DNA from: Rheinheimera sp.
GTDB lineage: Bacteria; Pseudomonadota; Gammaproteobacteria; Enterobacterales; Alteromonadaceae
Direction: 5' to 3'
Assembly: GCF_037442345.1 (NCBI RefSeq)
Contig: NZ_JBBIQL010000019.1
Location: 35,724 to 99,723, forward strand
Length of the DNA: 64,000 nt
Under the pieces are notes generated by a model that saw only the letters and a program-made list of their open reading frames with translations, made no database searches and was not told the origin of the DNA. The position numbers were made by a program, and so were the translations under genes. This document shows, in pieces, positions 19,764 to 57,178 of this stretch (positions are counted from its first letter, which is position 1; the number at the start of each line of letters is the position of its first letter).

Positions 19764-20429
19764 TTAACACCAAAACGCCGTGAGGGTAAAACGGCCTGTC
19801 CTGGGGTTGTCATCGTACCGGTAATCAGCGCTGATATCCCCTGAATGCAAAGAGGAGCAGCGGTACAGCAGCAGGCGGTTTTTACGGGCCGGTATTTGCA
19901 GTACCCGCTCAAATAACAGGGTATCGCCACAAATATAGCCCTCAGGCTCACCAACCCTTTGCACGTCAGCGCCCAACTGCTGCTGATAGGCCCCAAGCCG
20001 CTGCTGGTCCACATATTCAAAGCCTGAGCTTCGGTGCCGGTAGAAACTGGTACCACCATGTTCGGCGCCACATAAATACAATACAGCCGCCAGCTCCTGC
20101 TGCACAGGCCGGTCAAAGTGTGGCAGCCGTTGCGGCAGGCTCAGCTGCTCAGCCGCTGTGGTAACCAGTGAATAAAAGCAGTTCAGCTGACGAAGCTGGC
20201 TGGGTTGCAGGTCAAACACCGGCTGTAGCACAGTGGCCAGTCGCTGCTGCATCCACTGGGCAAAACCAGGCGGGGCCGCTGAGCGCAAGCCTGGGTACAA
20301 GCCGGCGGCCTGCTGCACATCCTGTTGGGTCAAGGCGTAGTCAATCAGCGAGTCCGGTTCTGGCACAAAATCGTCCACCAGCAACAAAGGCTGCTGCTCC
20401 TGACCAAAACGCATGGCCTGACACTTCAC
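19764..20429 (-). CDS. DUF6445-family protein (predicted Fe(II)/2-oxoglutarate oxygenase fold)
   Basis: YPGLR, LPHFD (HxD), GGTSFYRH, SLHS (distal His), GRFT; paralog at 48840. Confidence 0.78.
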   Translation of the reverse strand: MKCQAMRFGQEQQPLLLVDDFVPEPDSLIDYALTQQDVQQAAGLYPGLRSAAPPGFAQWMQQRLATVLQPVFDLQPSQLRQLNCFYSLVTTAAEQLSLPQRLPHFDRPVQQELAAVLYLCGAEHGGTSFYRHRSSGFEYVDQQRLGAYQQQLGADVQRVGEPEGYICGDTLLFERVLQIPARKNRLLLYRCSSLHSGDISADYRYDDNPRTGRFTLTAFWC

Positions 20430-20441
20430 AGCTATCTCCTG

Positions 20442-21947
20442 TTAGTTCATCGCTGCAGCTTTGCAGTGCCGGTTAATAAAATCCTGATGCGAAGGCATAT
20501 AGTCCACCGATTTGCGGATCACGGCACGGATGCTGTCCATCCGTTTACCCAGTTCTTCATCACTGAACATGTCCGCCAGCGGGTGGTAGGAGGCCGGCGT
20601 AATGCCTTGCCCTAACATCACCTCAAACCAGCTTAAGTCGCTGAACATTTCCTGGTTAAAACGGAAGATCCGGCCCGAAGCACGAAATTGCTCAATTTTC
20701 TGGGTCAGCTCCTTTGGCACCTCCATGCCGCGGCAATATCGCCAGAAGGCGGAATCGTCCCGCTCTGTGGCATGGTAATGCAGGATCAGAAAATCGCGGA
20801 TGCGCTCGTAGTCAAAATCCATCTGACGGTTAAATTCATCAATGTCGGCCTGCTCAAAACGCCGGTCCGGAAAAAAGCTGAACAACTTGGAAATAGCGGC
20901 CTGCACCAAATGCAGACTGGTCGATTCCAGCGGTTCCATAAAACCACTGGCGAGCCCAATAGCCAGGCAGTTTTTCGACCAGAACTTTTTGCGTTTGCCT
21001 GTCGTGAAGTTCAACAAACGGGGCTCAGCCAGCGCCTCGCCATCCAGCTGCTGCATCAGTACAGAAGTGGCTTCATCCACCGACATATAGCGGCTGCTGA
21101 ACACATGGCCATTGCCGGTACGGTGCTGCAGCGGAATACGCCAGATCCAACCGGCTTTTTGTGCGCTGGCCCGGGTAAATGGCCAGGGGTCACCCGCTTT
21201 GGCACAAGGCACGGCCACGGCGCTGTCGCACGGCAACCACTGGCTCCAGTCGTCGTAACCGGCCTTGAGCGTTTTTTCAATCAGCAGGCCCTGAAAGCCG
21301 GAGCAATCAATAAAAAAGTCGGCCTCATGCACAGTGCCATCGTCCAGCTGCAAAGAGCGGATAAAACCATTGTCCCATTGTTGCACCGACTGTACCTTGC
21401 CTTCAGTGCGTTCCACGCCCCAGCCCTGTGCCAGTTCACGCAAATACAGCGCAAACAAACCAGCGTCAAAATGAAAGGCGTAGGCAATGTTGGATAACGG
21501 TGAATTGCCAGCGTCAATGGAACGCATAAAACGCCGCTCGTCACAGGCCAGAGAGGTTAAGGTGTACTGATCCAGCGGAGCCGCTTTGCCTTGCAGATGC
21601 TGACGCAGCCAATAATGGTAAAACTGGATGCCCTCCATGTTTTTACCCACTTCGCCAAAAGCGTGATAATAACTGTGGCCAGGTTTTAACCAGTCTTTAA
21701 ACTGAATACCCAGCTTAAAAGTGGCCTGGGTACGGCGCATAAACTCGTCTTCATCCAGCCCTATCAGCTGGTTATACAACATGATCTGCGGAATGGTGGC
21801 TTCGCCGACCCCGACTGTACCTATCTGCTCAGACTCAATCAGCTGAATGTGGCAAAACTGGTTTTTCAGCACCTTGCCCAGTGCAGCTGCCGTCATCCAG
21901 CCGGCTGAACCGCCGCCTAATACGATGATTTTTCTTAGTTTATTCAT
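20442..21947 (-). CDS. Tryptophan-halogenase-family flavin-dependent halogenase
   Basis: GGGSAG, GVGEATIP, ATFKLGI (catalytic Lys), GWIWRIP (WxWxIP), FMEPLES (catalytic Glu). Confidence 0.88.
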   Translation of the reverse strand: MNKLRKIIVLGGGSAGWMTAAALGKVLKNQFCHIQLIESEQIGTVGVGEATIPQIMLYNQLIGLDEDEFMRRTQATFKLGIQFKDWLKPGHSYYHAFGEVGKNMEGIQFYHYWLRQHLQGKAAPLDQYTLTSLACDERRFMRSIDAGNSPLSNIAYAFHFDAGLFALYLRELAQGWGVERTEGKVQSVQQWDNGFIRSLQLDDGTVHEADFFIDCSGFQGLLIEKTLKAGYDDWSQWLPCDSAVAVPCAKAGDPWPFTRASAQKAGWIWRIPLQHRTGNGHVFSSRYMSVDEATSVLMQQLDGEALAEPRLLNFTTGKRKKFWSKNCLAIGLASGFMEPLESTSLHLVQAAISKLFSFFPDRRFEQADIDEFNRQMDFDYERIRDFLILHYHATERDDSAFWRYCRGMEVPKELTQKIEQFRASGRIFRFNQEMFSDLSWFEVMLGQGITPASYHPLADMFSDEELGKRMDSIRAVIRKSVDYMPSHQDFINRHCKAAAMN

Positions 21948-21971
21948 CCGTTTTCTCAGCACGTCTTCAAT

Positions 21972-22007
21972 AGAAAAATGCGCTCTTGTTTTCACAAAAG
22001 CGCATTT
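21972..22007 (-). terminator. Terminator-like hairpin between TBDR1 and halogenase 1
   Basis: AAATGCGCT...AGCGCATTT stem followed on the minus strand by TTTTTCT. Confidence 0.55.
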
Positions 22008-22030
22008 GGCTTAGTGGCCACACCACGATG

Positions 22031-25000
22031 TCAGAAATTGGCCCGCATCACCAGTGCCAGGCGACGGTCTGAGACAAACCAGGAACGTCCGGCTTCCACT
22101 CCTTCGTCGTTGAGCATCATCAGGGTTTCAGACTGCGAGTTGGTCAGGTTAGTGCCCTGTAAACCCACACTGAAGTTGTCGCTGACATTGTAAAACAGCG
22201 ACGCATCCACCTGACCATGGTCGTCGTACCACAGCGGTGCCTTACTGATCACATCGCGGGTGGTCAGCAGGTACTTCGACCGCCAGTTGTAAGCGACCCT
22301 GGCACTCCAGCCGTTTTTCTCGTACATACCGACCAGGTTGAAGGTGCGGTCGGACTGACCCTGCAGTGGAATATTGTCCAGGCTGACCCGAATACCTGTG
22401 TCGGTGAAATCATCCCCAACCCAGCTTTCATCATCGGCATCGATCTGGTTATTTGGGACTCCACTGGCGTCAATGTAAGTAAAACTCGCCTGCATGCCTA
22501 AGCCATTCCAGGGCTCTGGCAACATGTCGTAAAACTGCTGATACGCAATTTCAAGACCATCCATTTTGCCGTCACCCGCATTGGTGGTGGTGGTGACCAA
22601 CGCCGTCTGGCTGACTCCGGTCACCGGGTTGGTAAAGCTTTGCGGAAAGGCCCCCTGCACAAAGTAGTTTTTCAGCTCTTTATGGAATAAAGTCGCACTC
22701 AATTGCCCCACATCGGCAAAGTACCATTCGAGCGCAAAGTCATACTGCACCGACTCCATCGGCTTCAGATAAGGGTTGCCGCCGCTGCCGGTCCAGACAG
22801 GCACATAAGCCCGTTGGATCAGGTTGTCCTGTGGCAATGGCGGATTGTCTTCGTCAATGTCCGTAATGGGCCGCACGGCCATAACAGGCTCAGTCCCCAA
22901 AGAGACTTTGTTGATCACATCGCCCATATCCGGCAAGGCCACGGCTTTGGAAGCGGCAAAACGGCCAATCAGTTCATCCGTCAATTCCACCTTAATGTTA
23001 AAGCTGGGTAACGTCATGCTGAAATCCGTTTCTGCTTCCAGCCGGCTGTCGGTGTCATTACCAAAAGCGCGGTCATGATCAGGCAGGTAATTGACTGCAT
23101 CCCCTATCCAGCGGTTTTCCGGAGCCCGCAGTGCCTCCTCTACCGTTGCGTAAGTGCCGGCAGCCACCTGCTGACCGACATAATCCAACACCAGTTGCGG
23201 GGTCAACTGACGGTTTTGCAGTTCGGCCGGCGGCAGGAAATCAGGCAGCAGATCAGGGAAATTGACATAACCATTGGCTTCACGGGTCAGTTTCACATAA
23301 CGCAAGCCCAGATTGCCGCTGTAACGTAAATCGCCCTGACCTTCGAAGTTCAGCTTCAGGTACACCGCTTTATTGGTTTCGGTGGTGTCGTTGATTTCGC
23401 CAGGCTGGAAAATGCCAAACTCACTGTCAACCCCGTCCCGCTCTGGGTAAGGGATCCAGGTGCCGCCGTCCGACTTATACACCTGCCGTGCCGGATTCGC
23501 GCCCATAATAGAGCGGACATAAGCTTCGGTCATGGCAATGGTTTTGCCTCCCTGAATATTCACAATGCCGCCATCGTGGAAATCAGACCAGTCCACCAGT
23601 TCATAGTCGCCAGCCAACTCAGACAGGGTATCCAGCCAGCCAGCCGGCGCGGCCCCAGTGTATTCAGGGGCCAGAGCCCCCCAGTTCCAGCTGGTGGCCC
23701 GCACCGTCTGCTCACGTTTGGCATAACGCACACCGGCCTGCAGGGACGTCAGTACCCCTTGCCCATCAAACTGATACGTGCCATCAAGTCGCAGTGCAAC
23801 CGAGTCGCCTTCGGAGCGCTCATAGTGGTCCATGGCACTGCGCAGGAAATAAGAGGTCGGGTCCTGGAAGTAATTGCTGTCACCGGCCGGGTCGCCGCTG
23901 AAGCCTGGGTAACCTGTGGCAAAATCATCCGGGTTGGCGTCCCGGGAGCCAAACCAGGGCTCCAGCAAGGTCATGGTCGGTGTGCTGCCAGTGACATTGT
24001 AGTCCTGACCGGCAAAAGCCCCGGTCATCACCACCACATCGTCATCCTGAGTGTTGGCTCTGACCACCTGAAGATCGCCGACCAGCTTCAACTGCTCTGT
24101 GGCTTTCCACTCCAGGTTTAACGAAAAATCTTCCACTTCGGTGTTGGTGTCTTTGACCCTGCTGTCAAACTGAGTGACGTAACCAAACTGATTACGGGCA
24201 TTGGTGCCCCAACCGCGGGCCACGCGGTCTACGTTGCCATCAGCAGCGCGCCAGCCATCCACCCCCTGCGTAATAATGCCGGACTCAAACAGGCCGTTGT
24301 CGTCAAACTCAAACTCTGTGCCTTCCAGCGGGCGGGAGCGACGACCATCGATATTGTAGTACCCCCCCTGGTATTTAATGGCCTGTTCATGCCAGGACAA
24401 ACGTGCATCGGAGCGGATGTACTGGAAGGTGCCAAGAAAGGTGTCGTCGGCGTTTTGAAACTGGAAGGCGGCCGAAGCCCCATTGCGTTCACGATCATCA
24501 AACTTCTGCAGTGCGTTGGCCGCATTGGGCATCCAGACCACCCCCTGACCGTCCTCACCGACAAAGTCTTCGGCGCCGGCCAGCGTATTGGCGTAGAACG
24601 GCACATAAGCGTCGGACTGAATACCATGCGACTCGCCATACAGCTGTGAATGCGCCAGGTTAAACAACAGGCCAAATTCCGCACCGCTGTCGAGCGTATA
24701 ACGGTCACTGAATAACCCAGAAATGGTCGGGCTGCCTTTTTCAGCGATATCCCCATAAGACCAGTCACCACTGATGGCCACCACCCGACCGGCCGAGTCA
24801 AAGGGCTTACGGGTGCGCAAACTGACAGTGCCACCAATACCGCCTTCAATCATATCGGCGGTCTGGTTTTTATAAATATCAACACCACCCATCAGTTCAG
24901 GTGACACGTCCTGAAAGGACAAGCCCCGACCTGAGTTGGCAGTAAATGAATCCCGGCCATTAAATTCACTGCGGGTCTGAGTCATCCCCCGGATAATGGC

Positions 25001-25372
25001 CCCACTGCCTTCGACGCTGAAATGGTCCGGGTCGTCCGGGCCAGCAAAACGCTCCACAGACACACCGGGCACCCGCTGAATGGCTTCCAGCACACTGCGG
25101 TCTGGCAATACCCCAATATCTTCGGCTGAAATACCGTCCACCACAGTGTCGGCCAGACGTTTGATATTCTGTGCGCTTTGCAGGTTGGCTCTGGTGCCTC
25201 TGACTTCAATAACTTCGGTTTTTTCGTCGCTCTTGTCTGCCGTGTTTTCCGCTTGCGCCTGCTCTTGCGCATAAGCACCGGCAGAGCAGCCTAACATGGC
25301 CATCAGCAGCAAAGACGGCCTGAATGCAGGTAAACGAACACTGGTACGGTTCGCAGCTCGTGCAACCATCAT
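22031..25372 (-). CDS. TonB-dependent receptor (glycan-locus type), about 1113 aa
   Basis: Signal peptide, TonB box EVIEVRG, plug motif DGISAEDIG..PD..V.EAIQRVPGV, C-terminal ...VMRANF; ATG at 25372/25369 with a GGGAG RBS. Confidence 0.93.
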   Translation of the reverse strand: MMVARAANRTSVRLPAFRPSLLLMAMLGCSAGAYAQEQAQAENTADKSDEKTEVIEVRGTRANLQSAQNIKRLADTVVDGISAEDIGVLPDRSVLEAIQRVPGVSVERFAGPDDPDHFSVEGSGAIIRGMTQTRSEFNGRDSFTANSGRGLSFQDVSPELMGGVDIYKNQTADMIEGGIGGTVSLRTRKPFDSAGRVVAISGDWSYGDIAEKGSPTISGLFSDRYTLDSGAEFGLLFNLAHSQLYGESHGIQSDAYVPFYANTLAGAEDFVGEDGQGVVWMPNAANALQKFDDRERNGASAAFQFQNADDTFLGTFQYIRSDARLSWHEQAIKYQGGYYNIDGRRSRPLEGTEFEFDDNGLFESGIITQGVDGWRAADGNVDRVARGWGTNARNQFGYVTQFDSRVKDTNTEVEDFSLNLEWKATEQLKLVGDLQVVRANTQDDDVVVMTGAFAGQDYNVTGSTPTMTLLEPWFGSRDANPDDFATGYPGFSGDPAGDSNYFQDPTSYFLRSAMDHYERSEGDSVALRLDGTYQFDGQGVLTSLQAGVRYAKREQTVRATSWNWGALAPEYTGAAPAGWLDTLSELAGDYELVDWSDFHDGGIVNIQGGKTIAMTEAYVRSIMGANPARQVYKSDGGTWIPYPERDGVDSEFGIFQPGEINDTTETNKAVYLKLNFEGQGDLRYSGNLGLRYVKLTREANGYVNFPDLLPDFLPPAELQNRQLTPQLVLDYVGQQVAAGTYATVEEALRAPENRWIGDAVNYLPDHDRAFGNDTDSRLEAETDFSMTLPSFNIKVELTDELIGRFAASKAVALPDMGDVINKVSLGTEPVMAVRPITDIDEDNPPLPQDNLIQRAYVPVWTGSGGNPYLKPMESVQYDFALEWYFADVGQLSATLFHKELKNYFVQGAFPQSFTNPVTGVSQTALVTTTTNAGDGKMDGLEIAYQQFYDMLPEPWNGLGMQASFTYIDASGVPNNQIDADDESWVGDDFTDTGIRVSLDNIPLQGQSDRTFNLVGMYEKNGWSARVAYNWRSKYLLTTRDVISKAPLWYDDHGQVDASLFYNVSDNFSVGLQGTNLTNSQSETLMMLNDEGVEAGRSWFVSDRRLALVMRANF

Positions 25373-25564
25373 AATCTCCCCGTTGTGTTGTTGAATCCCG
25401 GTCAAGTTGCGGCCTTTGGCCTGCTGTTGTTATGGCAACCGGGTCTGTTGTGATGCAGCTGGGCCTCTACAAAAGGCGCATAAACGCGAAGCGGCGAAAG
25501 CTGTCGGTATAGATACTGGAGTGAAGTATTCGTCAGGTCCAGCTCGTTGAAAAAAAACGGAATA

Positions 25565-42397: not shown

Positions 42398-42961
42398 ATG
42401 AATACACAAATGAACGAATTTCATCTAAAAATTTATCTAAGTGAAATATCTTTTCAATGCCAACCAGCCCTGCAAGCGAACGATGGCGTAATGCATTTTT
42501 TGAAACAATTACCCAACGCAAACAGAGTCGATGCATCTCAATTTTTGCAAAATGAAGTTTTCAGAAACTTACATAGCTTGTTAACACATACAAGTAATGT
42601 GTCTCGCTTGTTATGGCATCCAAACAAAAAGGGGAAATCAAAAGATCGAGCTGAATACTTAAGGAGCTATCTAGGGCTCACCGAACATCATGTGGTTGCC
42701 GATCGGAGATTATGGGATCACTTAGAACACTTTGATGAGCGGCTAGACAACTGGAGAGAAGGTAGTAACGCAACTATGTTTGCTGATGCCACCATAGGAC
42801 CGCAGGGGAAGACATTTGGCGGTATTGAGGAAAAGAGCATCATGCGATTCTTCGATCCTTACTCTTTTATTTATGTTTTCAGAGGTGAACCTTTCAGCAT
42901 TAAAGAGATATCAAAGTCAGTTTGGGAACTGAATCAGCTGATTCGTTCCAAAATCCACTAG
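42398..42961 (+). CDS. AT-rich hypothetical protein, possible HEPN-like fold
   Basis: 187 aa, codon usage (TTA, AGA, ATA, CTA) unlike the flanking genes; RRLWDHLEHFDERLD segment. Confidence 0.7.
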   Translation: MNTQMNEFHLKIYLSEISFQCQPALQANDGVMHFLKQLPNANRVDASQFLQNEVFRNLHSLLTHTSNVSRLLWHPNKKGKSKDRAEYLRSYLGLTEHHVVADRRLWDHLEHFDERLDNWREGSNATMFADATIGPQGKTFGGIEEKSIMRFFDPYSFIYVFRGEPFSIKEISKSVWELNQLIRSKIH

Positions 42962-46859: not shown

Positions 46860-48767
46860 ATGCGTATCCTCTTGTTCGTTCTTGCTGTTGTATCAGGCCA
46901 GCTGATGGCTGAAGTGAAACTGCCTCGCCTGATCAGTGATGGCGCCGTATTGCAACGCGATAAAAGCATCCCGCTTTGGGGTTACGGCAGTGATGGCGAA
47001 GCGGTGGAGCTGTATCTGAATAACCAGCTGATTGGCAAAGCCGTGACCCGCCTTGGCCGCTGGCAAATCCAGCTGCCCGCTCAAAGCGCTGGCGGCCCGC
47101 ATCAGCTCAGAGTCAAAGGCCAGAATGAAGTGCAGGTGAACGACCTGTATTTTGGTGACGTCTGGGTGGCATCGGGCCAGTCCAATATGGAGATGCCAAT
47201 GGCGCGGCTGGCCGAGGCTTACCCGGCCGATCTGGCTGCTGCCCATTTTCCGCTGATCCGCCAGTTCAGCGTGCCGCAACACTACAACTTTAAAGCCCCC
47301 CAAACGGATCTGAGTGATGGCCGCTGGATGCAGGCTACAGCCGCCGATATTCAGCATTTTTCTGCGTTAGCCTATTACTTTGCCCGCGACCTGCAGCAAC
47401 AAATGAAGGTGCCCCTTGGTATCTTAAATAACGCGTTGGGCGGTTCGCCGGTGGAAGCCTGGCTGAGCGAAGAAGCACTACAGGCCTACCCGGAGGCACT
47501 GGCCGAAGCAAAAAAATTTAAAAACGATGGTTATATCGCCGAAGTAACCGCCGCGGATGCGGCGAAAAACCAGGCCTGGTATGGTGATTTAGCGGCCCGC
47601 GATCAAGGGCTGCAGGCCCCAACCCCCTGGTATCAGCCAGAATTGAATGACTCCGGCTGGAAAACTATTGAGCTGCCTGGCTTTTTACCCCAGGCTTTTA
47701 CCGGGGTCTGGTGGTTACGCCAGCGCATTGAATTAACCGCTGAACAGGCCAAACGGGCCACCGTATTGCGTCTTGGCAGCATAGTGGACGCCGACGAAGC
47801 CTATTTAAACGGCCAGAAAATTGCCGAAACCACTTATCAGTATCCGCCACGGCGTTACGACATTCCGGCCGGTTTACTGAAGGCTGGAACCAACCTGTTA
47901 GCGGTCCGTATTACCTCCACCCAAGGCAAAACCGGCCTGATGCCGGACAAGCCGTATTGGATAGGTACCGATCAGCAGCAACTGCCTCTTGGTAAAAGCT
48001 GGAAAATGCAGTTGGGCGCCAGCGCCTCCCCCCTGCCTGGCGATACCTTTATCCGCTGGAAACCGCTGGGGCTTTATAACGGCCTGACTGCGCCTTTAAC
48101 CTGGCTGCCGGTCAAAGGGGTGATCTGGTACCAGGGGGAGTCCAATGTGGGGGCTTGTGCTCAGTACCAACAACGTTTTGAACAGATGATTCACGTCTGG
48201 CGCCGCGCCTGGCAGCAACCGGATTTGCCGTTTTTGTATGTGCAGCTGGCCAATTTTTTAGAGAAAACCACCACACCAACAGACAGCAGTTGGGCAGGCC
48301 TGCGTGAAGCGCAGCGCCTGACACAGCGGGTACCGCACACCGCCATGGTGGTGGCGCTGGATACCGGCGAATGGAATGATATTCACCCGGTGGATAAACG
48401 TACTTTAGGGCAACGTCTGGCGCTGGCTGCCCGCGCTGTGGCTTACCAGGAGCCCTTGGGGTATCGCGGACCGGAAATTGCCTCGGTGAAAACAAAAGGT
48501 CAGCACTTGCTGCTGAGTTTTCACTTTACCGACCAAGGCCTGGTGCTGAAAGGGCCACACAGTGACCAGGCCTTTGCCATTGCCGGCAAAGACGGTCGTT
48601 ATGTCTGGGCCAGGGTGCAGCAACAAGGCGACCAGTTACTGTTGTCTTCCCCTGAAGTGTCTGAGCCAGTGTCGGTGCGCTACGGCTGGGCCGATAACCC
48701 GGATGCCGTTCTTTACAACGGCCTGGGCTTACCCGCCAGCTCCTTTGAAGCCAAAGTGGATTTGTAA
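46860..48767 (+). CDS. Sialate O-acetylesterase-family (SGNH) carbohydrate acetylesterase with internal beta-sandwich
   Basis: Signal peptide, GQSNMEM, WYQGESN, QLANF, NDIHP. Confidence 0.88.
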   Translation: MRILLFVLAVVSGQLMAEVKLPRLISDGAVLQRDKSIPLWGYGSDGEAVELYLNNQLIGKAVTRLGRWQIQLPAQSAGGPHQLRVKGQNEVQVNDLYFGDVWVASGQSNMEMPMARLAEAYPADLAAAHFPLIRQFSVPQHYNFKAPQTDLSDGRWMQATAADIQHFSALAYYFARDLQQQMKVPLGILNNALGGSPVEAWLSEEALQAYPEALAEAKKFKNDGYIAEVTAADAAKNQAWYGDLAARDQGLQAPTPWYQPELNDSGWKTIELPGFLPQAFTGVWWLRQRIELTAEQAKRATVLRLGSIVDADEAYLNGQKIAETTYQYPPRRYDIPAGLLKAGTNLLAVRITSTQGKTGLMPDKPYWIGTDQQQLPLGKSWKMQLGASASPLPGDTFIRWKPLGLYNGLTAPLTWLPVKGVIWYQGESNVGACAQYQQRFEQMIHVWRRAWQQPDLPFLYVQLANFLEKTTTPTDSSWAGLREAQRLTQRVPHTAMVVALDTGEWNDIHPVDKRTLGQRLALAARAVAYQEPLGYRGPEIASVKTKGQHLLLSFHFTDQGLVLKGPHSDQAFAIAGKDGRYVWARVQQQGDQLLLSSPEVSEPVSVRYGWADNPDAVLYNGLGLPASSFEAKVDL

Positions 48768-48782
48768 GCATTCAACTGCAAA

Positions 48783-48806
48783 AGTGGCGCAGCAAGCTAC
48801 GCCACT
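48783..48806. terminator. Hairpin between the convergent esterase and DUF6445 genes
   Basis: AGTGGCG...CGCCACT. Confidence 0.45.
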
Positions 48807-48839
48807 ACAATACACTGCTCTGTGGCCTGCGGTGCTGCT

Positions 48840-49541
48840 TTACGGCTGGCAATCAATAAAACTGCTGATGGTCAGCCGTCCCTGTCGAGGGTCGGCTGAT
48901 AAGCAGGTGTCTGGCCCTATTTGGGCGCTGTGCAGCAAGGTGCGGCGGTACACCACCAGACGGTTAAAACAGCCCTCCACTGCGCCCAGCTGGCAGAACA
49001 GTGGGGTATCGCCCTGAATATAACCCGCGTCAGTCCCAGGAATGTCTGGGCCGGAGTTTTCACTTTCCAGTGAGCGGTAATAAAGCTGGGTTCGGCTTTC
49101 ATCAATGGTCTCAAAGCCAGTTTTGCGGTGCCGGTAAAAAGCCGTGCCCCCCTGGTTGCCCTGAAACAGATAATGCACTGCCGCCAGCGCATGGGGGTCG
49201 GTGGTATCAAAATGCGGAATACGCTGCAATAACTTCAGCTGGTCTGGTGCAGTGGTCACCAGGGAATAATGACAGACTGAAAAGCTCAGTTTTTCCGATG
49301 GCAACGCGAACACCTTGCAAATTGTGCTTTGCAGGCTGTGCAAAAAACGCTGACGGTAGGCTTCTGGTGCCAGCGCCCGCACGCCAGGGTAATAAGGTGA
49401 ATTGGCCACAAAACTTTGTTTGCAGGCGTCCTGCACCCACAGGTCTGGCCGGGCAGAAAAATGATCCACCACCAGCACCGGCTGCTGCTCCTGACCCAGC
49501 GGCAGTACCTTGAGCTGCATGGACGGTGCCAGGCCTAACAT
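48840..49541 (-). CDS. DUF6445-family protein (predicted Fe(II)/2OG oxygenase fold), paralog 2
   Basis: YPGVR, IPHFD, GGTAFYRH, LLHS, GRLT; start overlaps the halogenase stop. Confidence 0.78.
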   Translation of the reverse strand: MLGLAPSMQLKVLPLGQEQQPVLVVDHFSARPDLWVQDACKQSFVANSPYYPGVRALAPEAYRQRFLHSLQSTICKVFALPSEKLSFSVCHYSLVTTAPDQLKLLQRIPHFDTTDPHALAAVHYLFQGNQGGTAFYRHRKTGFETIDESRTQLYYRSLESENSGPDIPGTDAGYIQGDTPLFCQLGAVEGCFNRLVVYRRTLLHSAQIGPDTCLSADPRQGRLTISSFIDCQP

Positions 49542-51049
49542 GCGCCGGCCATCATCTTCGACGGGCAGGCAATGCCGGATGCACAATAAGCACGGATAAA
49601 GTCCTGATGCGACGGCAAAGGTTCCACCGCCCGACGAATACTGCTGCGGATTTGCTGCAGATGCGCTTTCATCTCGGCTTCCGGCACGCTGGCCACCAGC
49701 TGATGGTAACTCTTGGGCTCCAACCGCTGACCCAACATTACATGAGTCCAGGATTCCAGCCGGAACATTTCATCACCGGTTTGAAAGGCCAAAGCACTGT
49801 CACGGAACAATTCCATACGATGCGCCAGGCTGTCAGGAATCGACATGGTACGGCAATAATTCCAGAACGCGCTGTCACTGCGTTCAGTCTGATGGTAATG
49901 CAAAATAATAAAGTCGCGGATTTTCTCCAGCTCCCGAATGGACTGCTGGTTGTATTCCCCGGCCAGAGCGTCAGTCACACCAGCAAATGGAAACAGCCGC
50001 AATAACCGAATGACACCATTCATAAAGAGGTAAATGCTGGTCGATTCCAGCGGTTCAATAAAACCACTGGACAAGCCGAGCGCCACACAGTTGCGGTGCC
50101 AGAACTTTTTACGCCGCCCGGTCTGGTAACTCAACACCCGAGGCTCCATCAAAGGGGCGGTTTCCAGATTCCCCAGCAACTGCTGGCGGGCCTGTTCATC
50201 CGACAGGTAATCAGCCGCATACACCAGTCCATTGCCCACCCGGCTTTGCAGCGGAATACGCCACTGCCAACCGGCCTGATGGGCCATGGCTCTGGTGTAA
50301 GGCGGCAGTGTTGCTGCAGACTCAGTTTGCACCACCACGGCTTTGTTGCAGGGCAACCAGTGGTCCCAGCGTTCAAAACCGGTGTTTAACGTCTGTTCAA
50401 TCAGCAGAGCACGAAAGCCGGTGCAGTCGATAAATAAATCGCCATCAATGCGCTGGCCGTCGGCCAGCACTAACGCACTGATGTCGCCATTGGGGTGCTG
50501 CTCGACCTGCTGAATTTTGCCTTCAATACGACTGGCGCCCAAGGCCTCACTGAACTGACGTAAAAAACGGGCATAACGGCCTGCGTCCAGATGATAGGCG
50601 TAGCTCAGGCCGCCCTGGCTGCTTTTGGCAAACTTATGCGCCAGCGCGGCCTGCAGCTCGTAACAATAATCCGAGAATGGCGCGTCCTCCCCCAAAGTTT
50701 TGCCATGCAGGTAATAATGCTGAAAATCAGCCAGAAAACTGCCGCGGCCTGTGGTGCCAAAGGGGTGAATATAACGGTCGCCCTGCGCTCCCCAGTGTTC
50801 AAAGGAGATGCCCAGTTTAAAGGTGGCGTCAGTCGCCCGCATAAAGTCCTGCTCGTCGATGCCCAGCAGATTATGAAACAAAGTGACAGGCGGAATGGTG
50901 GACTCGCCAACCCCCACAGTGCCTATGTCTTCCGACTCCACCAGCACCAGCTCAATCTGGCCCTGAAGGCGTTTAGACAGCGCTGCGGCCGCCACCCAGC
51001 CGGCAGTGCCACCTCCTGCAACCACCACTTTTTTTACTTTGTTTTGCAT
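49535..51049 (-). CDS. Tryptophan-halogenase-family flavin-dependent halogenase, paralog 2
   Basis: GGGTAG, GVGESTIP, ATFKLGI, GWQWRIP, FIEPLES. Confidence 0.88.
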   Translation of the reverse strand: MQNKVKKVVVAGGGTAGWVAAAALSKRLQGQIELVLVESEDIGTVGVGESTIPPVTLFHNLLGIDEQDFMRATDATFKLGISFEHWGAQGDRYIHPFGTTGRGSFLADFQHYYLHGKTLGEDAPFSDYCYELQAALAHKFAKSSQGGLSYAYHLDAGRYARFLRQFSEALGASRIEGKIQQVEQHPNGDISALVLADGQRIDGDLFIDCTGFRALLIEQTLNTGFERWDHWLPCNKAVVVQTESAATLPPYTRAMAHQAGWQWRIPLQSRVGNGLVYAADYLSDEQARQQLLGNLETAPLMEPRVLSYQTGRRKKFWHRNCVALGLSSGFIEPLESTSIYLFMNGVIRLLRLFPFAGVTDALAGEYNQQSIRELEKIRDFIILHYHQTERSDSAFWNYCRTMSIPDSLAHRMELFRDSALAFQTGDEMFRLESWTHVMLGQRLEPKSYHQLVASVPEAEMKAHLQQIRSSIRRAVEPLPSHQDFIRAYCASGIACPSKMMAGAC

Positions 51050-51076
51050 GGTGTAAATCCCTGTCAATTGATTGGC

Positions 51077-52111
51077 TTATCGGTTCAAGCGTTGCAGCAA
51101 CATAGCGCGCAACTGGCGGGCTTTTTGCTCGTCCAGCCCACCCAGCAGCCCCTGCGCAGCGTCAGGCAAATGCGCTACCGACTGCTCTGGTTCAAAAATG
51201 TAATAGTCGAGAATGGCGCGCCAGGCGCGGCGTTCATGCACGGGTTTATCTTTTAACGTCAACAAGGCGTGGTACAGCAGGTTGGAACCTGCGCCTGTGT
51301 AACGCGGTGCCTCACTCCACCAGTAATTAAGCAGCACATTAAAGGACCCCAGTGCCTCGACCTGATGCCACCACATGGCCGGTAAATACAAAGCGTCACC
51401 AGGCTCCAGCTCCACCACCTGTGCTACCGCCTGTGCTTTTGCAAAGTTGGGGAATTTCTGCAGGTCCGGATTGGCAACATCAACCAGACTAATCACCTGC
51501 CCGCCCGGTGTGGGCTCAAGCGGCCCAGGGTATAAATTGGCAATTTGCTCAGGCGGGAACAAGGTAAAACGGCGCTTGCCGGCAATAACGCACGCCAGGT
51601 TGTCGGACGAGTCATAATGACAGGCCGCCAATGAACGGTTGCCCAGCCACAAGCTGATCCGCTCTGCTTCTGTCGGATACGGCAAGGCTTGTTTTGGCCA
51701 GTCCAGCTGGTTTTGTTGCAGCAACAGCGGAAAATGACTTTGGATCAGGTTGGAGGCGATATAAAGCGATGGCGGTTGTGGTTCCTGCTGCCACTGCAAC
51801 AGTTGGTGCAGTACGTCATCCACCCTGCCAATACGGGCTTCAAAGTTTAATGCCGTGTAATCGTCATTGTAAAAGTAGCGGCCATTCAGCCCCGGCTCGC
51901 CATAATAGACCTGGGTCGTGCGGCCGTTGTAATGGGTCAGCAGGTAATCGGCCACCGAAGCTGCGCTGTGCTGGCCAGCCTGCAGCAAAGGCCAGTGGCT
52001 CAGCAGACCTTTGATCAGTACCGGGCCCTGGCCGTCCAATAAATCGACCGGCACCTGGCCGGGGTCGCATTGCACCTGCCGCACGGCAACGACCTCTGGC
52101 GACGCACTCAT
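51077..52111 (-). CDS. Cupin-like 8/JmjC-domain protein (Pass1-related)
   Basis: LWLG, ACHYD (HxD), GKRRFTLF, LEPGDALYLPAMWWHQV (distal His). Confidence 0.85.
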   Translation of the reverse strand: MSASPEVVAVRQVQCDPGQVPVDLLDGQGPVLIKGLLSHWPLLQAGQHSAASVADYLLTHYNGRTTQVYYGEPGLNGRYFYNDDYTALNFEARIGRVDDVLHQLLQWQQEPQPPSLYIASNLIQSHFPLLLQQNQLDWPKQALPYPTEAERISLWLGNRSLAACHYDSSDNLACVIAGKRRFTLFPPEQIANLYPGPLEPTPGGQVISLVDVANPDLQKFPNFAKAQAVAQVVELEPGDALYLPAMWWHQVEALGSFNVLLNYWWSEAPRYTGAGSNLLYHALLTLKDKPVHERRAWRAILDYYIFEPEQSVAHLPDAAQGLLGGLDEQKARQLRAMLLQRLNR

Positions 52112-52857
52112 CCGGCAACCCGCACTGTCTGTGGCGCTGAACTTTGCCGGTTTTTGCGTTCAATCAGCACTTGAATATTGCTCATGGAGCTGACCTGGGC
52201 AAACAGCAACGCCAGGAGACCGGTTTGGTTTAATGCGGCCAGCTCACTCCCTGTTAACTGGGCCAGCCGCTGCTGATCAATGCAGTAGTTGCCGAGCAGA
52301 CGGTATTTTTCACCATTGTCCAGACTGAACTCAATGCTGACGGGCCGCAGCAAGCCCAAAGGCTCAATAGCGGCAAAAAAATCCGGTTGCCTCTGATGCC
52401 CCAGATGCAGACGCTGCAGCAGATCAATCATATGCTCCAGATAGGCGCTGTGGCCGCCCTGAGGTAAAAACAATGGCTGGCCCTGCTCTGTACTGACTTT
52501 AGGGTGCGCGGGATCAATATGGATCACCGGTGTCGGCTGTGCATCGCCCTGCTGGCGCTGAAAACCAATCAGAAAGGGGCCTTTTTCAAGGCTGGCCGGT
52601 ACCACTCTGGCATCCCAGCCGGATGCCAGCGACTCATTCAGGTAAAGGTTTTCACCGGGCGCAAACCCCAGCAAGGCTGTGGCATAAAACACACCGTCCT
52701 GCTGGCGGAATAAAATTGGGTATTCTTTTTGCAATTGCAGAAATTCAGAAGGATAAACGGGCACTACGGCCTGGTTGTCGCCAAAAGCGGCAGAAAAACG
52801 CGGCAGAACGCGAAGATCCTGATGGTCGAGATTATTCAGTAATACATGCCTGTGCAT
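52108..52857 (-). CDS. sapC: SapC-family protein
   Basis: LLNNLDHQDLR, EFLQLQKEYPILF, LLGFAPGENL, GPFLIG; typical position after a TBDR. Confidence 0.8.
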   Translation of the reverse strand: MHRHVLLNNLDHQDLRVLPRFSAAFGDNQAVVPVYPSEFLQLQKEYPILFRQQDGVFYATALLGFAPGENLYLNESLASGWDARVVPASLEKGPFLIGFQRQQGDAQPTPVIHIDPAHPKVSTEQGQPLFLPQGGHSAYLEHMIDLLQRLHLGHQRQPDFFAAIEPLGLLRPVSIEFSLDNGEKYRLLGNYCIDQQRLAQLTGSELAALNQTGLLALLFAQVSSMSNIQVLIERKNRQSSAPQTVRVAG

Positions 52858-52879
52858 ACATTTCGTCCTGTTACTGCCA

Positions 52880-52920
52880 AAAAGGTCAAAGCGAAGCTGC
52901 GCCTGATGACGCAGCTTCGC
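52880..52920 (-). terminator. Terminator-like hairpin between TBDR2 and sapC
   Basis: 11-bp perfect arms GCGAAGCTGCG / CGCAGCTTCGC followed on the minus strand by TTTGACCTTTTT. Confidence 0.7.
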
Positions 52921-52939
52921 TCACTACAGACCGACCAGG

Positions 52940-55900
52940 TTAGAAACTATACCTCATACCAATCTGATAACGGGCATCCAGATCGGTCAGATACCACATC
53001 ATCGCTTCGTTACGGGCATGAGAGCGGCTGTCTTCGCCGGTCAGGTTCAGGCCTTCAAAAGACACCGTCAGCTTCTCATTAAAGGCGTAGCTGATGCTGG
53101 CGTCGATTTGCCAGTACGCTTCTTCAAAGCGTGGGTTGTTAGAGCCACCTTTGTTGACCTCCGCCAGGTATTTATCCCGCCAGTTCCAGGCCAGACGGGC
53201 CTGCCAGCCAGCGTTTTCATAAATACCCACCAGGTTAGCGGTGTCACTCAAGCCCACCAACGCAAACTGCGACTGGCTGGGGTCTGCGGCCACATCAAAG
53301 CCGACATCACCACGCACTATGGTGTAGTTGGCCTGCACACCAAAACCACTGTCGCCGAAGAAATGCTGCATCGCAAGCTCTGCCCCATAAATCTTCGCCG
53401 ATCTGTTGTTATCCGGTGTGCTGGTCCGGAACACCACCTCTGGGTCATCAGCATTGGCACGCAAATCAAAGCCAGCATGGTTGGCCAGGAAATCGATTTG
53501 AGCGGCACTGCCGGTAAACTGAGGGTTGCTGCCGTACTCTGCAATCATGTCCGGATGAGTGCGGTATTCGTTAAAGACCATCATGGCATAGAGGTAAGTG
53601 TCATCAACCGGGTAACCACCCGCTCGCAGGTCTTCTACCGCAGCCAAAGCGCGAGGACCGGCAGTGACATCCTGAATCCCCAATAATGGCTGGTCAACCT
53701 GACGGCTGCCGATAAAGTTAATGACGTCTTTCTGGAACAGGCCAACAGCGGCATAACTGTCGTCTTTGTAGTAATACTCCAGCGACAAGTCGTAGTTGGA
53801 CGATTCCAGTGGCAACAACCCTGGATTGGACGCATTGGCTGTCGGCTGCGCACCAAACAAGGTGGAACCACCACCGCCACCAAAGTTGGACGCCGATACC
53901 CCCAGGCTGCCTAAACCAGCGCGGGCCAGGGTTTTACTGAAGGAGAAACGGCTGATTAATTCATCCGACAGGTGCAAGGTTAAATCCAGGCTTGGCAACA
54001 GGTAATCGTACTTGTTATTGGCACTGAACGGTGCCGCCGGCACACTGCCGTCGACATAAGACACGATGTCGTTGTTGTCTTCCCACTGGAAGTAGACTCT
54101 GCTGACCAGCGAGCTGGACTCGGTTTTGGTTTCTTCATAACGTAAACCGGTCAACACATCAAAAGGCATTTTGCCAATTTCACCTTGCAGAAATACCTGG
54201 AAGTAAGCCGCTCTGGTGTCTTCCTGCACAATATTGTCAAAGGACAAACTGGTTTCTGACGCGGTCGGAATACCTGGGTACAGACCCAGCGCGGCTTCAT
54301 ACAAAGCGCGGGGGTCGGCGATAAAACCATAACCACCAGCCAAAGCGCTGTAATCGTCAAACTCACCTGGCAGATCAAATGGCTGAATTAGATCACCGAA
54401 TTCGCCTGGGTTACCGACGTTCCAGTTGCCCAGCGCTATATTGTTACCCGCCGTTTGCATAGAGCGGGATTCCATATTGCGGGCTTCAATACCAAAGTCA
54501 AAATGCCCGTCATCCAGCAGGTAACGGCCATCCAGTTTGATTTGGGTAATGTCACTGCGCTGGCTGGCATTGCGGATACGGGCAATGGATGAACCCACAT
54601 CACCGGCGTCGACCATGCCATTGGCATTGGCGCCTTTGCCTGGCACTGTGTCGTCGTACACATTGAGGTACGTGGGCAAATCGGCGCCCCAGAACCATTC
54701 ACGCGAGGTGACAATAGGCGCCCCTAAACCAACCGCCAGCTCACCCGAGTTGCGTGGGCCTGTGCCGCGGCTGAACATACTGGAATCATGCGCATCCAGC
54801 GTCAGGCTGAGATCATCATTGATGTCATAATCCAGGTTCAGACCGGCAGATTTTAAGGTGTTGGTCTGTTCGCGCCATTGCTGCTCATAACCTTCGTCCA
54901 CAGCGCCATTGTAAGTTTCCTGCACATAGACAGGGGTTTTCACAATGTTATTGTCAAACTCCACCACTTTGGTGTTGCTGCCGTTTTGCATCCAGTTGGT
55001 CACTTCACCGCGGTGTTCAGCCAGATTGTTTTCCGCAAAGGTGTAGTCTGCCGTGACGGTAAAGTTTTCTTTAGGCCGGTACTGCAAAGTCAGCTGAGCA
55101 TTGTCACGTTCACGTTCTGTGTTGGAAAAGGCGTAACGAATATCGTTGGGCCGGGCATAGAGCTGCCCCTGTGAAGGTGCGTTGATCACCTGGGTATTGA
55201 CGTTATTCCAGGTGCGGTCCAAATCGGCAATATCGTCCCAATAAGAAACCTGCCAGTCATTGACTGTGGCCCCTGTGTACCCTGAATCCCGCTGCTGATG
55301 GCTGGCAGACAGACTGACACCAAACGTATCGTCTTCGGTCACAGTACTGAAAATACCCGAGATTTCCGGCGTGACATCATCGCCGGTTCTGTTGGTGGTG
55401 TCGTGCGCAGCCTTCACACCTATGCTGGCCACATCCTGATCGCTTTCCAGCGGACGGGCCGTTTTGATATTCAGGGTTGCCCCCATACCGCCGGTGGCAA
55501 TATTGGCTTTACTGGTTTTGTATACTTCCACACCGCTGATACTTTCAGAGGCCAGGTTGGAAAAGTCAAAAGCCCGGGCACTGCCGCCACGGGTGGTGCC
55601 ATCTGCACCAGAACCCGCACCGTAGGTCGTTGCCGCCGGCATGGTGCGGCCGTTTAAGGTGACCATATTGTTGTCACCACCAAAACCACGCACTGTGACT
55701 TCAGCACCTTCACCATTGGTGCGGCTGATCGACACCCCTGTAATACGCTGCAAGGATTCAGCCAGGTTGGTGTCCGGGAATTTCCCTATGTCTTCGGCGG
55801 AAATCGCGTCCACCACCCCGATGGATTCTTTTTTAATGGCGGTAGCAGCCTGCATACTGGAGCGTATGCCTTTCACCTGGATAACTTCGACTTGCTGAGT

Positions 55901-56011
55901 GTCTGATGTGTTTGCCTGTTGTGCTATTACCGGAGTCACCACTGAACCACCGAGTAACACAGATAACGCTCTGGCTACTGCAGTTTGGGTGAACCTGCGT
56001 TGATTTGTCAT
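52940..56011 (-). CDS. TonB-dependent receptor (glycan-locus type), 1023 aa
   Basis: Signal peptide, EVIQVKG, DAISAEDIGKFPDTNLAESLQRITGVSI, C-terminal YQIGMRYSF. Confidence 0.94.
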   Translation of the reverse strand: MTNQRRFTQTAVARALSVLLGGSVVTPVIAQQANTSDTQQVEVIQVKGIRSSMQAATAIKKESIGVVDAISAEDIGKFPDTNLAESLQRITGVSISRTNGEGAEVTVRGFGGDNNMVTLNGRTMPAATTYGAGSGADGTTRGGSARAFDFSNLASESISGVEVYKTSKANIATGGMGATLNIKTARPLESDQDVASIGVKAAHDTTNRTGDDVTPEISGIFSTVTEDDTFGVSLSASHQQRDSGYTGATVNDWQVSYWDDIADLDRTWNNVNTQVINAPSQGQLYARPNDIRYAFSNTERERDNAQLTLQYRPKENFTVTADYTFAENNLAEHRGEVTNWMQNGSNTKVVEFDNNIVKTPVYVQETYNGAVDEGYEQQWREQTNTLKSAGLNLDYDINDDLSLTLDAHDSSMFSRGTGPRNSGELAVGLGAPIVTSREWFWGADLPTYLNVYDDTVPGKGANANGMVDAGDVGSSIARIRNASQRSDITQIKLDGRYLLDDGHFDFGIEARNMESRSMQTAGNNIALGNWNVGNPGEFGDLIQPFDLPGEFDDYSALAGGYGFIADPRALYEAALGLYPGIPTASETSLSFDNIVQEDTRAAYFQVFLQGEIGKMPFDVLTGLRYEETKTESSSLVSRVYFQWEDNNDIVSYVDGSVPAAPFSANNKYDYLLPSLDLTLHLSDELISRFSFSKTLARAGLGSLGVSASNFGGGGGSTLFGAQPTANASNPGLLPLESSNYDLSLEYYYKDDSYAAVGLFQKDVINFIGSRQVDQPLLGIQDVTAGPRALAAVEDLRAGGYPVDDTYLYAMMVFNEYRTHPDMIAEYGSNPQFTGSAAQIDFLANHAGFDLRANADDPEVVFRTSTPDNNRSAKIYGAELAMQHFFGDSGFGVQANYTIVRGDVGFDVAADPSQSQFALVGLSDTANLVGIYENAGWQARLAWNWRDKYLAEVNKGGSNNPRFEEAYWQIDASISYAFNEKLTVSFEGLNLTGEDSRSHARNEAMMWYLTDLDARYQIGMRYSF

Positions 56012-56122
56012 TCTCGTACCATCCCTATTGATTTGTGCTGGCTAAGTCAACCAACTACCAGGCTTGCCGGCTTGTATTTATAGCGTGCGCCGGTTTTACC
56101 TGGAGCCTGCGGCACCACCAAA

Positions 56123-56136
56123 TGTAAGCCCTTACA
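56123..56136. promoter_or_regulatory. LacI-family-type operator upstream of TBDR2
   Basis: TGTAAG-CC-CTTACA, one base from the palindrome TGTAAGCGCTTACA. Confidence 0.6.
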
Positions 56137-56225
56137 GAGGCTCAGTTCAGCAATGACCGCCATTGATTGTAGTGGCGGAAACCGCTGCAGGAAGTTGCCA
56201 AAATACGTTAGCTTTTTGCTTTTTT

Positions 56226-56239
56226 TGGTAACGCTACCA
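56226..56239. promoter_or_regulatory. Second LacI-family-type operator
   Basis: TGGTAACGCTACCA, one base from the palindrome TGGTAGCGCTACCA, with a central CG. Confidence 0.5.
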
Positions 56240-56350
56240 TGGCCTAAAGACCGTAGCGCCTGAGACAAAACGCAGATTTGCAGCGCCGGATAGCGGTATA
56301 AGCGGTGATTTTGCTACTATGAAGGCATCTGCCTCCGTGAATTTTGTGCG

Positions 56351-57178
56351 ATGAAGTACAGCTTAGTATTGATCGGTTTTCTCTGTGCGCTGCAAAGCCT
56401 GGCTTCTGCAGTGCCGGAGCGGTTGCTGACGTCCGAAAAACGGCCTTACAACTATCTGAATCATCAGTTAGTGACAGGCCTGACCATTGATTTGCTGCAT
56501 ACCATGTACCCACAACAGTTGCCGGCGGCAGTTGAACTGATGCCCTGGCCCCGCGCTTTACACACCGCCTTGCATACACCCAATGTGCTGCTGTTTACCA
56601 TGGGTAAAACGGCCCTGCGTCAGCAGCAAGGCTTTCATTTTATCGGACCGGTATCGCGCCGGGAGCACTGGCTGTACAGTGCCGAGCCTGGTTTCAAACC
56701 CTTGCTCAGCCTTGAGCATTTAAAAAGCCGCAAGTTGCTGATTGTTGGTCTGAGAGCGGGCTGGCTGAGCGAATGGCTGCAAGAACAAGGTGTGGCACTG
56801 GAAACTGTTGGTGATTATGAGCAAGGCATGCAAATGCTGGCCAGAGACCGGGCTCAGCTTTGGTTGTCGACCGAACTGGAAGAACAGGTGTTAAGGAATC
56901 ACAGCCCTGCCGGACAAAAACTCAAACCTGTGCTCAAGCTTGGCTGCTCTTACAACTACCTGGCACTGTCTCCCGGCAGCAGTCAGGCCCTGATAGAGGA
57001 TACCAGGGCTCGTTTTGCGCTGGCTATCCGCAGCCCACAACTGCAGCAACACAGGCAAAACTGGCAGCAGGAACTGGGCCTGGCATTGGGGTTATCACCC
57101 AGCGCCGGCTTTTACCTGGTCCATGAAGGCGACGCCAAATGCACTATGGATTTAGCGTCCGGTGTGCGTACTCAGTAA
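56351..57178 (+). CDS. Orphan substrate-binding periplasmic protein (family 3-like)
   Basis: Signal peptide, TSEKRPYNY, MPWPRAL, FTMGKTALR, FIGPV. Confidence 0.75.
   Translation: MKYSLVLIGFLCALQSLASAVPERLLTSEKRPYNYLNHQLVTGLTIDLLHTMYPQQLPAAVELMPWPRALHTALHTPNVLLFTMGKTALRQQQGFHFIGPVSRREHWLYSAEPGFKPLLSLEHLKSRKLLIVGLRAGWLSEWLQEQGVALETVGDYEQGMQMLARDRAQLWLSTELEEQVLRNHSPAGQKLKPVLKLGCSYNYLALSPGSSQALIEDTRARFALAIRSPQLQQHRQNWQQELGLALGLSPSAGFYLVHEGDAKCTMDLASGVRTQ

Follow-up and report, generated by a model that had tools for sequence, protein, structure and literature searches.

Iyer, Abhiman, de Souza and Aravind (NAR 2010, PMC2938197) described, in alpha- and gammaproteobacteria, a conserved and characteristic set of neighbouring genes which unites a JOR/JmjC protein, one to three tryptophan halogenases, a TonB-class receptor, SapC and, as an optional member, a second classical 2-oxoglutarate (2OG)- and Fe(II)-dependent dioxygenase (2OGFeDO) of the Syn9-gp52-like type; a halogenated siderophore-like compound was predicted as its product. 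A second point of reference is provided by two flavin-dependent halogenases of known structure, BrvH (PDB 6FRL, from Brevundimonas BAL3) and Xcc4156 (PDB 6Y1W, from Xanthomonas campestris B100), which have been studied as biocatalysts without a known native substrate. According to passages of the literature on them, both favour bromide, do not accept free tryptophan and convert indole poorly (2.5 mU/mg); their active sites are open, and the authors concerned proposed a peptide substrate. The present work concerns a locus of five genes (positions 48840-56011) in a stretch of 64,000 nucleotides of Rheinheimera sp., hereafter the window (NCBI RefSeq assembly GCF_037442345.1, contig NZ_JBBIQL010000019.1, positions 35,724 to 99,723), from a genome of 4.0 Mb in 48 contigs. 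This locus is one copy of the cassette linked to a TonB-dependent receptor (TBDR) that was described in 2010.

The original prediction, made from the letters of the window, had singled the locus out as an undescribed, orphan system. This part of it has to be withdrawn, since the same neighbourhood is described in PMC2938197 and the halogenase is close to the crystallised Xcc4156 (5.8e-173) and matches BrvH as well. The locus is rather a clean, multi-copy further example of a published, widespread and still unexplained gene set. The explanation that we favour, at a probability of about one half, is that the cassette of Iyer et al. is expressed together with its receptor by read-through and would carry out, in the cytoplasm, the halogenation and hydroxylation of a peptide or protein target tied to TBDR systems.

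Gene content and organization of the locus

Annotation with Pfam and NCBIfam gave five genes in the same direction:

52940..56011, minus strand: TBDR, TonB-Xanth-Caul (glycan-type), 1023 amino acids (aa); Pfam Plug and TonB_dep_Rec_b-barrel; TIGR01782
52879..52922, minus strand: terminator-like hairpin and T-run, inside the 82-bp gap between the TBDR and SapC genes
52108..52857, minus strand: SapC, 249 aa; PF07277, 1.6e-63
51077..52111, minus strand: Cupin_8/JmjC Fe(II)/2OG oxygenase, 344 aa; PF13621, 3e-72; also JmjC_2
49535..51049, minus strand: flavin-dependent halogenase; PF04820, 2.7e-183; longest open reading frame (ORF) 49535-51067
48840..49541, minus strand: DUF6445, predicted classical Fe(II)/2OG oxygenase, 233 aa; PF20043, 1.7e-76; ORF extends to 49586

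The earlier claim of five co-oriented genes is borne out by these assignments, and each member has its counterpart in the set of 2010. The Cupin_8 protein groups with the JOR/JmjC proteins of the FIH/yW-hydroxylase clade, the halogenase has an intact Rossmann motif (GGGTAGW) and the lysine (TFKLG), and the TonB-class receptor lies directly upstream, with SapC next. The second, Syn9-gp52-like 2OGFeDO is probably represented by DUF6445, on the grounds of its predicted fold and of a tblastn match to a Synechococcus phage 2OG dioxygenase. All five families are shared, as are the HxD...H motif of both oxygenases and the spread over alpha- and gammaproteobacteria. What differs from the prediction of 2010 is the setting: the receptor is of the glycan type TIGR01782, and the neighbours, here and in about 30 sampled loci, are mostly carbohydrate-active enzymes and sugar transporters, without scaffold-forming genes.

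The junctions had been described as tight. This is correct for the SapC and cupin genes, which overlap by 4 bp (ATGA), and for the halogenase and DUF6445 genes, which overlap by 7 bp (ATGTTAG) if DUF6445 starts at ATG 49541; it is not correct for the TBDR and SapC genes, whose junction is loose, with a gap of 82 bp that holds a conserved terminator-like hairpin. It is the ATGTTAG overlap that places the DUF6445 start at ATG 49541 (233 aa), which is consistent with the Pfam match. The likely start of the halogenase is ATG 51049 (MQNKVKK...), 27 bp from the cupin gene; a start at TTG 51067 would leave 9 bp. Through the 4-bp and 7-bp overlaps, the four enzyme genes would be translationally coupled. 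The gaps within the cassette are too short to hold a precursor of a ribosomally synthesized and post-translationally modified peptide, and the sole small ORF nearby (73 aa, 56047-56268, upstream of the TBDR) is interrupted in R. marina and shows no conservation at the protein level; such a precursor may be encoded elsewhere. An Rfam scan of 48500-56600 gave no match at E<=0.1.

Only the TBDR begins with a signal-peptide-like sequence. The N-termini of SapC, the cupin and DUF6445 are polar and non-hydrophobic, and the FAD motif of the halogenase starts at about residue 10. The earlier statement that the four enzymes lack a signal peptide thus agrees with their N-terminal sequences; this lack, together with the position of the FAD motif some 10 residues from the halogenase N-terminus, argues for a cytoplasmic location of all four.

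The halogenase and the two oxygenases

The catalytic motifs of the halogenase, the cupin and DUF6445 are all intact, as had been predicted. The halogenase contains the GxGxxG motif (GGGTAGW), WxWxIP (GWQWRIPL), the catalytic lysine (TFKLG) and the catalytic glutamate (EPLES). Its sequence matches in the PDB are 6y1w (Xcc4156, 5.8e-173), 9luq (3.9e-164) and 6frl (BrvH, 8.4e-129), and its STIPPV and HPFGT stretches are similar to motifs of group C that are listed in a table of PMC8269204. Sharing with Xcc4156 and BrvH both the catalytic motifs and those of the group C-type substrate site, the enzyme belongs, as judged by sequence, to the non-tryptophan 'group C' (variant A) halogenases, the clade of BrvH and Xcc4156. 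The TonB-receptor context is constant for the cassette, and is unmentioned in the searched passages of two BrvH/Xcc structure papers. The halogenase would take FADH2 from a reductase encoded elsewhere, together with O2 and bromide or chloride, and would act on an electron-rich aromatic ring; no flavin reductase lies beside any module, that is, any copy of the cassette.

Among the eight halogenase paralogues of the genome, all eight keep the catalytic Lys and Glu, and seven have all four motifs (GxGxxG, WxWxIP, Lys and Glu). The divergent eighth, here called Hal' (contig C21:60554-62119; L006:10554-12119), scores 373 bits against about 600 for the other paralogues; it reads WxWxIA, FKQGS and EPLEAS at the corresponding motifs and retains the Lys and the Glu. 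Hal' sits between the TBDR and SapC on C21, and the same type occurs in Colwellia loci (L004, L005). A fusion of halogenase and DUF6445 was not present in any of about 170 loci examined.

The cupin displays the motif HYD...K...WWHQVE, which comprises the iron triad and the 2OG-binding lysine. Its sequence matches in the PDB are FIH (8e-21), JMJD5 (2e-19) and JMJD7 (3e-15), along with the TYW5-like 3al5. With FIH, JMJD5 and JMJD7, which are protein hydroxylases, it has in common the Cupin_8/JmjC fold, the HxD...H triad and the 2OG-binding lysine; it differs from them in that the homology is local (E about 1e-21 to 1e-14) and in that its gene is fixed beside SapC, with the 4-bp overlap. In DUF6445, the residues H110, D112, H204 and R222 are invariant in the alignment. 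The AlphaFold2 (AF2) model of this protein has a pLDDT of 95, and all function-annotated matches listed by Foldseek against the PDB are Fe/2OG enzymes (SnoN at 2e-4, EctD, AndA, PtlH and P3H1). The modelled fold is that of a classical Fe(II)/2OG oxygenase. Hydroxylation of the target would fall to the FIH/JMJD5-like Cupin_8 protein and to the PhyH-like DUF6445.

Paralogous cassettes in the same genome

The genome contains eight halogenase, three SapC, three Cupin_8 and three DUF6445 genes, distributed as follows (gene orders are given with their locus type):

C19, module 1: TBDR-Hal-DUF6445; xylan locus (GH43, GH115, GH10, GH9)
C19, module 2 (the present locus): TBDR-SapC-Cupin-Hal-DUF6445; adjoins CE6/SASA esterase
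C21: GH3, then TBDR-Hal'-SapC-Cupin-Hal-DUF6445-GH1-MFS_2-LacI; beta-glucoside
C5: LacI, then TBDR-Cupin-SapC-...-GH20; chitin
C15: AraC, then TBDR-Hal-GH30; GH30
C14: TBDR-Hal-GH31-GH13; maltodextrin
C8: LacI-...-TBDR-Hal; no locus type given
C14, contig end: Hal alone; context cut by the contig end

Module 1 is the second copy in the window:

19764..25405, minus strand: paralogous module 1 (Pfam), with TBDR 22031-25405, halogenase 20442-21995 and DUF6445 19764-20429

All seven decidable clusters of halogenase, SapC or cupin genes lie immediately downstream of a TBDR gene on the same strand, in a genome with 29 TBDR genes, a linkage far beyond chance. Six of these cassettes contain a halogenase and one contains only Cupin_8 and SapC, and each has a glycan-type TBDR of its own. 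Of the 21 glycan-type TBDRs that the genome encodes, 7 (about a third) carry a cassette. The two modules of the window had been taken for diverged paralogs, in agreement with identities of 46.7% for the halogenase, 41.5% for DUF6445 and about 28.5% for the TBDR.

By contrast, the view that the halogenase and DUF6445 form an invariant core, to which SapC and the JmjC protein are add-ons, is contradicted by these gene orders. The chitin/GlcNAc-type locus on C5 (C5:83035-84923; L007) has the reverse order TBDR-Cupin_8-SapC, without halogenase or DUF6445, while at least three TBDRs (those on C15, C14 and C8) are followed by a halogenase only. There appear to be two sub-modules, SapC with Cupin_8 and halogenase with or without DUF6445, either of which can join a receptor alone.

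The cassette in other genomes

About 160 loci were compared from Alteromonadales, Cellvibrionales, Steroidobacterales, Woeseiaceae, Xanthomonadales and the alphaproteobacterium Kordiimonas. The order TBDR>SapC>Cupin_8>Hal>(DUF6445) was found in most of them and, likewise, in most of 80 SapC loci. In a set of 96 proteins that flank 30 diverse loci, the commonest families were mostly GH3, GH94, GH43, GH16, melibiase, SASA, sugar transporters and LacI- or LysR-type regulators. Families of nonribosomal peptide synthetases (NRPS) or of siderophore synthesis were not among the top 25 flanking families of these loci. More broadly, neither scaffold-forming enzymes (NRPS, polyketide synthase (PKS), NRPS-independent siderophore (NIS) synthetase or ATP-grasp) nor an exporter were found near the cassette in the window, beside the other modules of the genome or in the top 25 flanking families.

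The receptor points in the same direction. It scores 625.3 bits against TIGR01782, for which the cut-off is 310, contains both the Plug and the barrel domains, and is therefore a member of this subfamily; against a siderophore-receptor model it reaches 26 bits. Its N-terminus carries a signal peptide and a TonB box (VEVIQVKG). Taken together, the TIGR01782 membership, the carbohydrate-active and sugar-transport neighbours and the lack of scaffold enzymes argue against a siderophore and for a role with glycan TBDR systems generally. On these grounds, a siderophore or secondary-metabolite cluster was ruled out as the principal explanation; the earlier assertion of a tie to glycan import finds support in the same receptor type and in the position of the cassettes within glycan loci.

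A hairpin between the receptor and the enzyme genes

A conserved attenuator-like hairpin separates the TBDR from the enzyme genes. At the present locus it has a 15-bp stem with 9 GC pairs, then a T-run (TGACCTTTTT), and about 25 nt remain between the T-run and the SapC ATG. In other genomes, 83 distinct TBDR-to-cassette junctions were surveyed over the 130 nt that follow the TBDR stop codon; a further 209 co-directional junctions (gaps of 50-260 nt) served as control. A strict terminator pattern was present in 57/83 of the former and in 13/209 of the latter; the median energy of the best hairpin was -23.4 versus -14.2 kcal/mol (Mann-Whitney p = 4e-27, a value that overstates independence, the loci being mutually related, yet the stems vary from genus to genus). 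It is thus the presence of a hairpin after the TBDR, and not its sequence, that is kept across genera.

The presence of the hairpin, with no room for a promoter after it, makes read-through from the TBDR, at a level below that of the receptor, the simplest account of how the cassette is probably expressed. Behind such a leaky intrinsic terminator, the enzymes would be co-induced with the TBDR and made at a much lower level.

A further candidate regulatory element lies upstream of the receptor gene:

56190..56232, strand not applicable: conserved 36-43-nt element with the imperfect palindrome TGGTAGCGTTACCA, in the TBDR upstream region

This element is 89-95% identical across many Rheinheimera loci and species, whereas its flanks have diverged, and it looks like a candidate operator, perhaps of a sugar repressor. 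The pattern of the palindrome occurs once in the whole genome, so that no regulon could be drawn from it.

SapC and its fusion to a halogenase

The SapC of the locus is 99% identical to that of a Rheinheimera metagenome-assembled genome (MAG) and 82% identical to that of R. marina. Invariant residues include N8, N9, H12, E38, Q43, Y46, E69, N70, W81, H113, D115 and H118, among them the stretch H113-x-D115-x-x-H118. The AF2 model (pLDDT 89, pTM 0.84) found no match at E<=0.001 by Foldseek against the PDB (best 0.15) and none against BFVD, the database of viral predicted structures. The prototype of the Pfam family is sapC of Campylobacter fetus, a gene of the sapCDEF S-layer secretion operon. 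The two proteins share PF07277 and the position of the gene beside an envelope-spanning transport system; however, the C. fetus gene accompanies type I secretion, with no TBDR, halogenase or oxygenase.

A profile search of 1.84 billion representative proteins retrieved 4592 relatives of SapC. The best 150 consist almost entirely of single-domain proteins with a length of about 240 aa, but include one Trp_halogenase-SapC fusion of 770 aa. A targeted search brought the number of distinct fusion clusters to seven (769-771 aa, identity down to 50%), from JGI, Logan and ENA. The fused halogenase keeps the catalytic Lys and Glu and is of the divergent Hal' type, the one that precedes SapC on C21 and in Colwellia. 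The recurrence of the fusion in seven clusters from three independent sources indicates that it is a real gene and that SapC and the halogenase work together. The claim that SapC serves as an adaptor thereby receives indirect support: SapC would be a physical partner of the halogenase, probably in docking or in presenting the substrate.

On two metagenome contigs (L090:5404-14331 and L092:4138-9934), the fusion gene is flanked by genes for a 665-aa protein with TPR and sulfotransferase domains and for a 468-aa sulfotransferase; on the first of them it also adjoins an Oar-like TBDR (CarboxypepD_reg and Plug). As far as annotation goes, this neighbourhood again combines a receptor with cytoplasmic modifiers of side chains, here with a protein-binding TPR module, in a set that differs from the cassette.

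On account of the fusion, SapC was also considered as the missing flavin reductase. This was judged unlikely, for SapC accompanies Cupin_8 alone on C5 and occurs without a halogenase in C. fetus.

What may the cassette modify?

Our literature searches retrieved no paper that tests by experiment what the cassette, SapC or DUF6445 does. That the enzymes act together is suggested by the start/stop overlaps and by the fusion with its catalytic Lys and Glu. Their target, in the explanation favoured here, would not be a siderophore or a sugar but a peptide or protein that many different glycan TBDR systems have in common. Several observations are consistent with a macromolecular substrate. The nearest solved relatives of the cupin, FIH, JMJD5 and JMJD7, hydroxylate proteins, and the gene for the halogenase-SapC fusion lies between a TPR-sulfotransferase and a sulfotransferase gene, beside an Oar-like TBDR. 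The open sites of BrvH and Xcc4156, their rejection of tryptophan and their poor performance on indole, as reported in passages on these enzymes, would fit such a substrate as well. The peptide or protein substrate put forward in the original prediction can therefore be regarded as a reasonable guess, given the FIH-type relatives of the cupin and the open sites of BrvH and Xcc4156.

The most obvious candidate for the target would be the precursor of the co-encoded receptor. It is tempting to speculate that the cassette halogenates and hydroxylates this protein post-translationally before its export, for example at tryptophans that stack against sugars, and that SapC, as a subunit for docking, offers the unfolded substrate to both the halogenase and the JmjC protein; as a specific proposal, this must be considered doubtful, and we would give it little credence at present.

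Several observations weigh against the explanation as a whole, and in part against the receptor as a target. We know of no precedent for the cytoplasmic modification of an outer-membrane protein exported by the Sec pathway. Some genes for DUF6445 occur on their own, or behind a TBDR that lacks a halogenase. Cassette-bearing TBDRs are scattered on the TBDR tree (6 changes versus a shuffled mean of 6.1) and have sisters without a cassette in the same genome (C29_27, C10_141 and C10_101). This scatter and these sisters indicate that the cassette is an optional accessory that is not needed for the biogenesis of this class of TBDR. As to the co-evolution of TBDRs and halogenases, which had been proposed as a check, the two trees are only partly congruent, within the genome and over few pairs, and co-inheritance would in any case mimic co-evolution. 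Moreover, no obvious mark of the cassette-bearing TBDRs was seen at the N-terminus, at the C-terminus or in the Trp content.

Alternatively, the substrates may be small molecules. Aromatic compounds that enter with glycans or are freed from them (for example, aglycones of phenolic or indolic type and feruloyl or coumaroyl groups) would be halogenated and hydroxylated, and the cell would detoxify or export the products or use them as signals. The structural neighbours SnoN, EctD, AndA and PtlH of DUF6445 are small-molecule enzymes, and the cassettes of the window lie amid xylan and esterase (CE6/SASA) genes, where phenolic esters occur; the literature passages on the BrvH and Xcc halogenases also report the bromination of free indole and its derivatives in vitro, albeit with very low activity on indole. 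However, cassettes of the same types occur in loci for chitin, maltodextrin and beta-glucan, none of which contains an aromatic part, the characterised relatives of the cupin act on proteins, and SapC and its fusion to the halogenase would be left without a role. We therefore consider tailoring or detoxification of small molecules rather unlikely. The proposal of 2010, a halogenated and hydroxylated, amino-acid-derived, siderophore-like metabolite that is imported by the adjacent TonB receptor, was drawn in PMC2938197 from the neighbourhood and from a perceived likeness of the receptor to siderophore receptors, and related neighbourhoods elsewhere do include sulfotransferases and NRPS genes. 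It is at odds with the receptor scores given above (625 versus 26 bits) and with the lack of NRPS, PKS, ATP-grasp or other scaffold genes, and of an exporter, beside the eight modules of this genome and among the top flanking families of the 30 loci. It would also imply up to eight metabolites in one genome, each in a different sugar locus under regulators of the LacI, AraC or XylR type, and appears improbable.

A regulatory or sensing role, or the absence of halogenation in vivo, would be another way to account for the cassette. In animals, FIH-type enzymes are oxygen sensors. The enzymes could likewise tune uptake or the expression of the locus according to O2 or to 2OG as an indicator of carbon and nitrogen status, for example by modifying a regulator or a protein of the TonB complex, with the halogenase as a plain monooxygenase. 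The homology of the cupin to FIH, the dispensability of the cassette for related TBDRs, which suits modulation, and the low level of expression predicted from read-through, which suits a regulatory enzyme, would all be in line with such a role. Yet the Lys and Glu specific to halogenation are kept in all eight paralogues, and many paralogous sets per genome are hard to square with one shared regulator; we hold such a role to be quite improbable too.

Whatever the substrate, the cassette accompanies a large share of proteobacterial glycan receptors, and thus, in many bacteria from the sea, from fresh water, from soil and from plants, the uptake of carbohydrates would go together with the expression of an unexplained oxidative chemistry. 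The embedding in glycan loci, the conserved attenuating terminator, the orphan fold of SapC and the halogenase-SapC fusion are added clues that narrow the candidates. Should the target indeed be a protein, the cassette would represent enzymatic protein halogenation in the service of primary nutrient uptake, and the native substrate of the BrvH/Xcc4156 clade would be at hand.

Other features of the window

The window as a whole is, by Pfam and NCBIfam annotation of its genes, a Rheinheimera region for the utilisation of plant polysaccharides. In addition to the two modules, it encodes an AraC-type XylR, xylulokinase, xylose isomerase, GH43, GH115, GH10, GH9 and an MFS_2 transporter, as well as a second GH43, a ManD-like enolase and the CE6/SASA esterase. 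Between positions 42001 and 44000 the GC content is 0.46, compared with about 0.53-0.56 around it, and this segment holds an ORF of 187 aa (42398-42961) without a Pfam match. Divergent from the TBDR gene lies an ORF of 275 aa (56351-57178, plus strand) without a Pfam or NCBIfam match; ORFs of similar size (276 and 299 aa) lie at the equivalent place in the MAG, which is nearly identical, and in R. marina.

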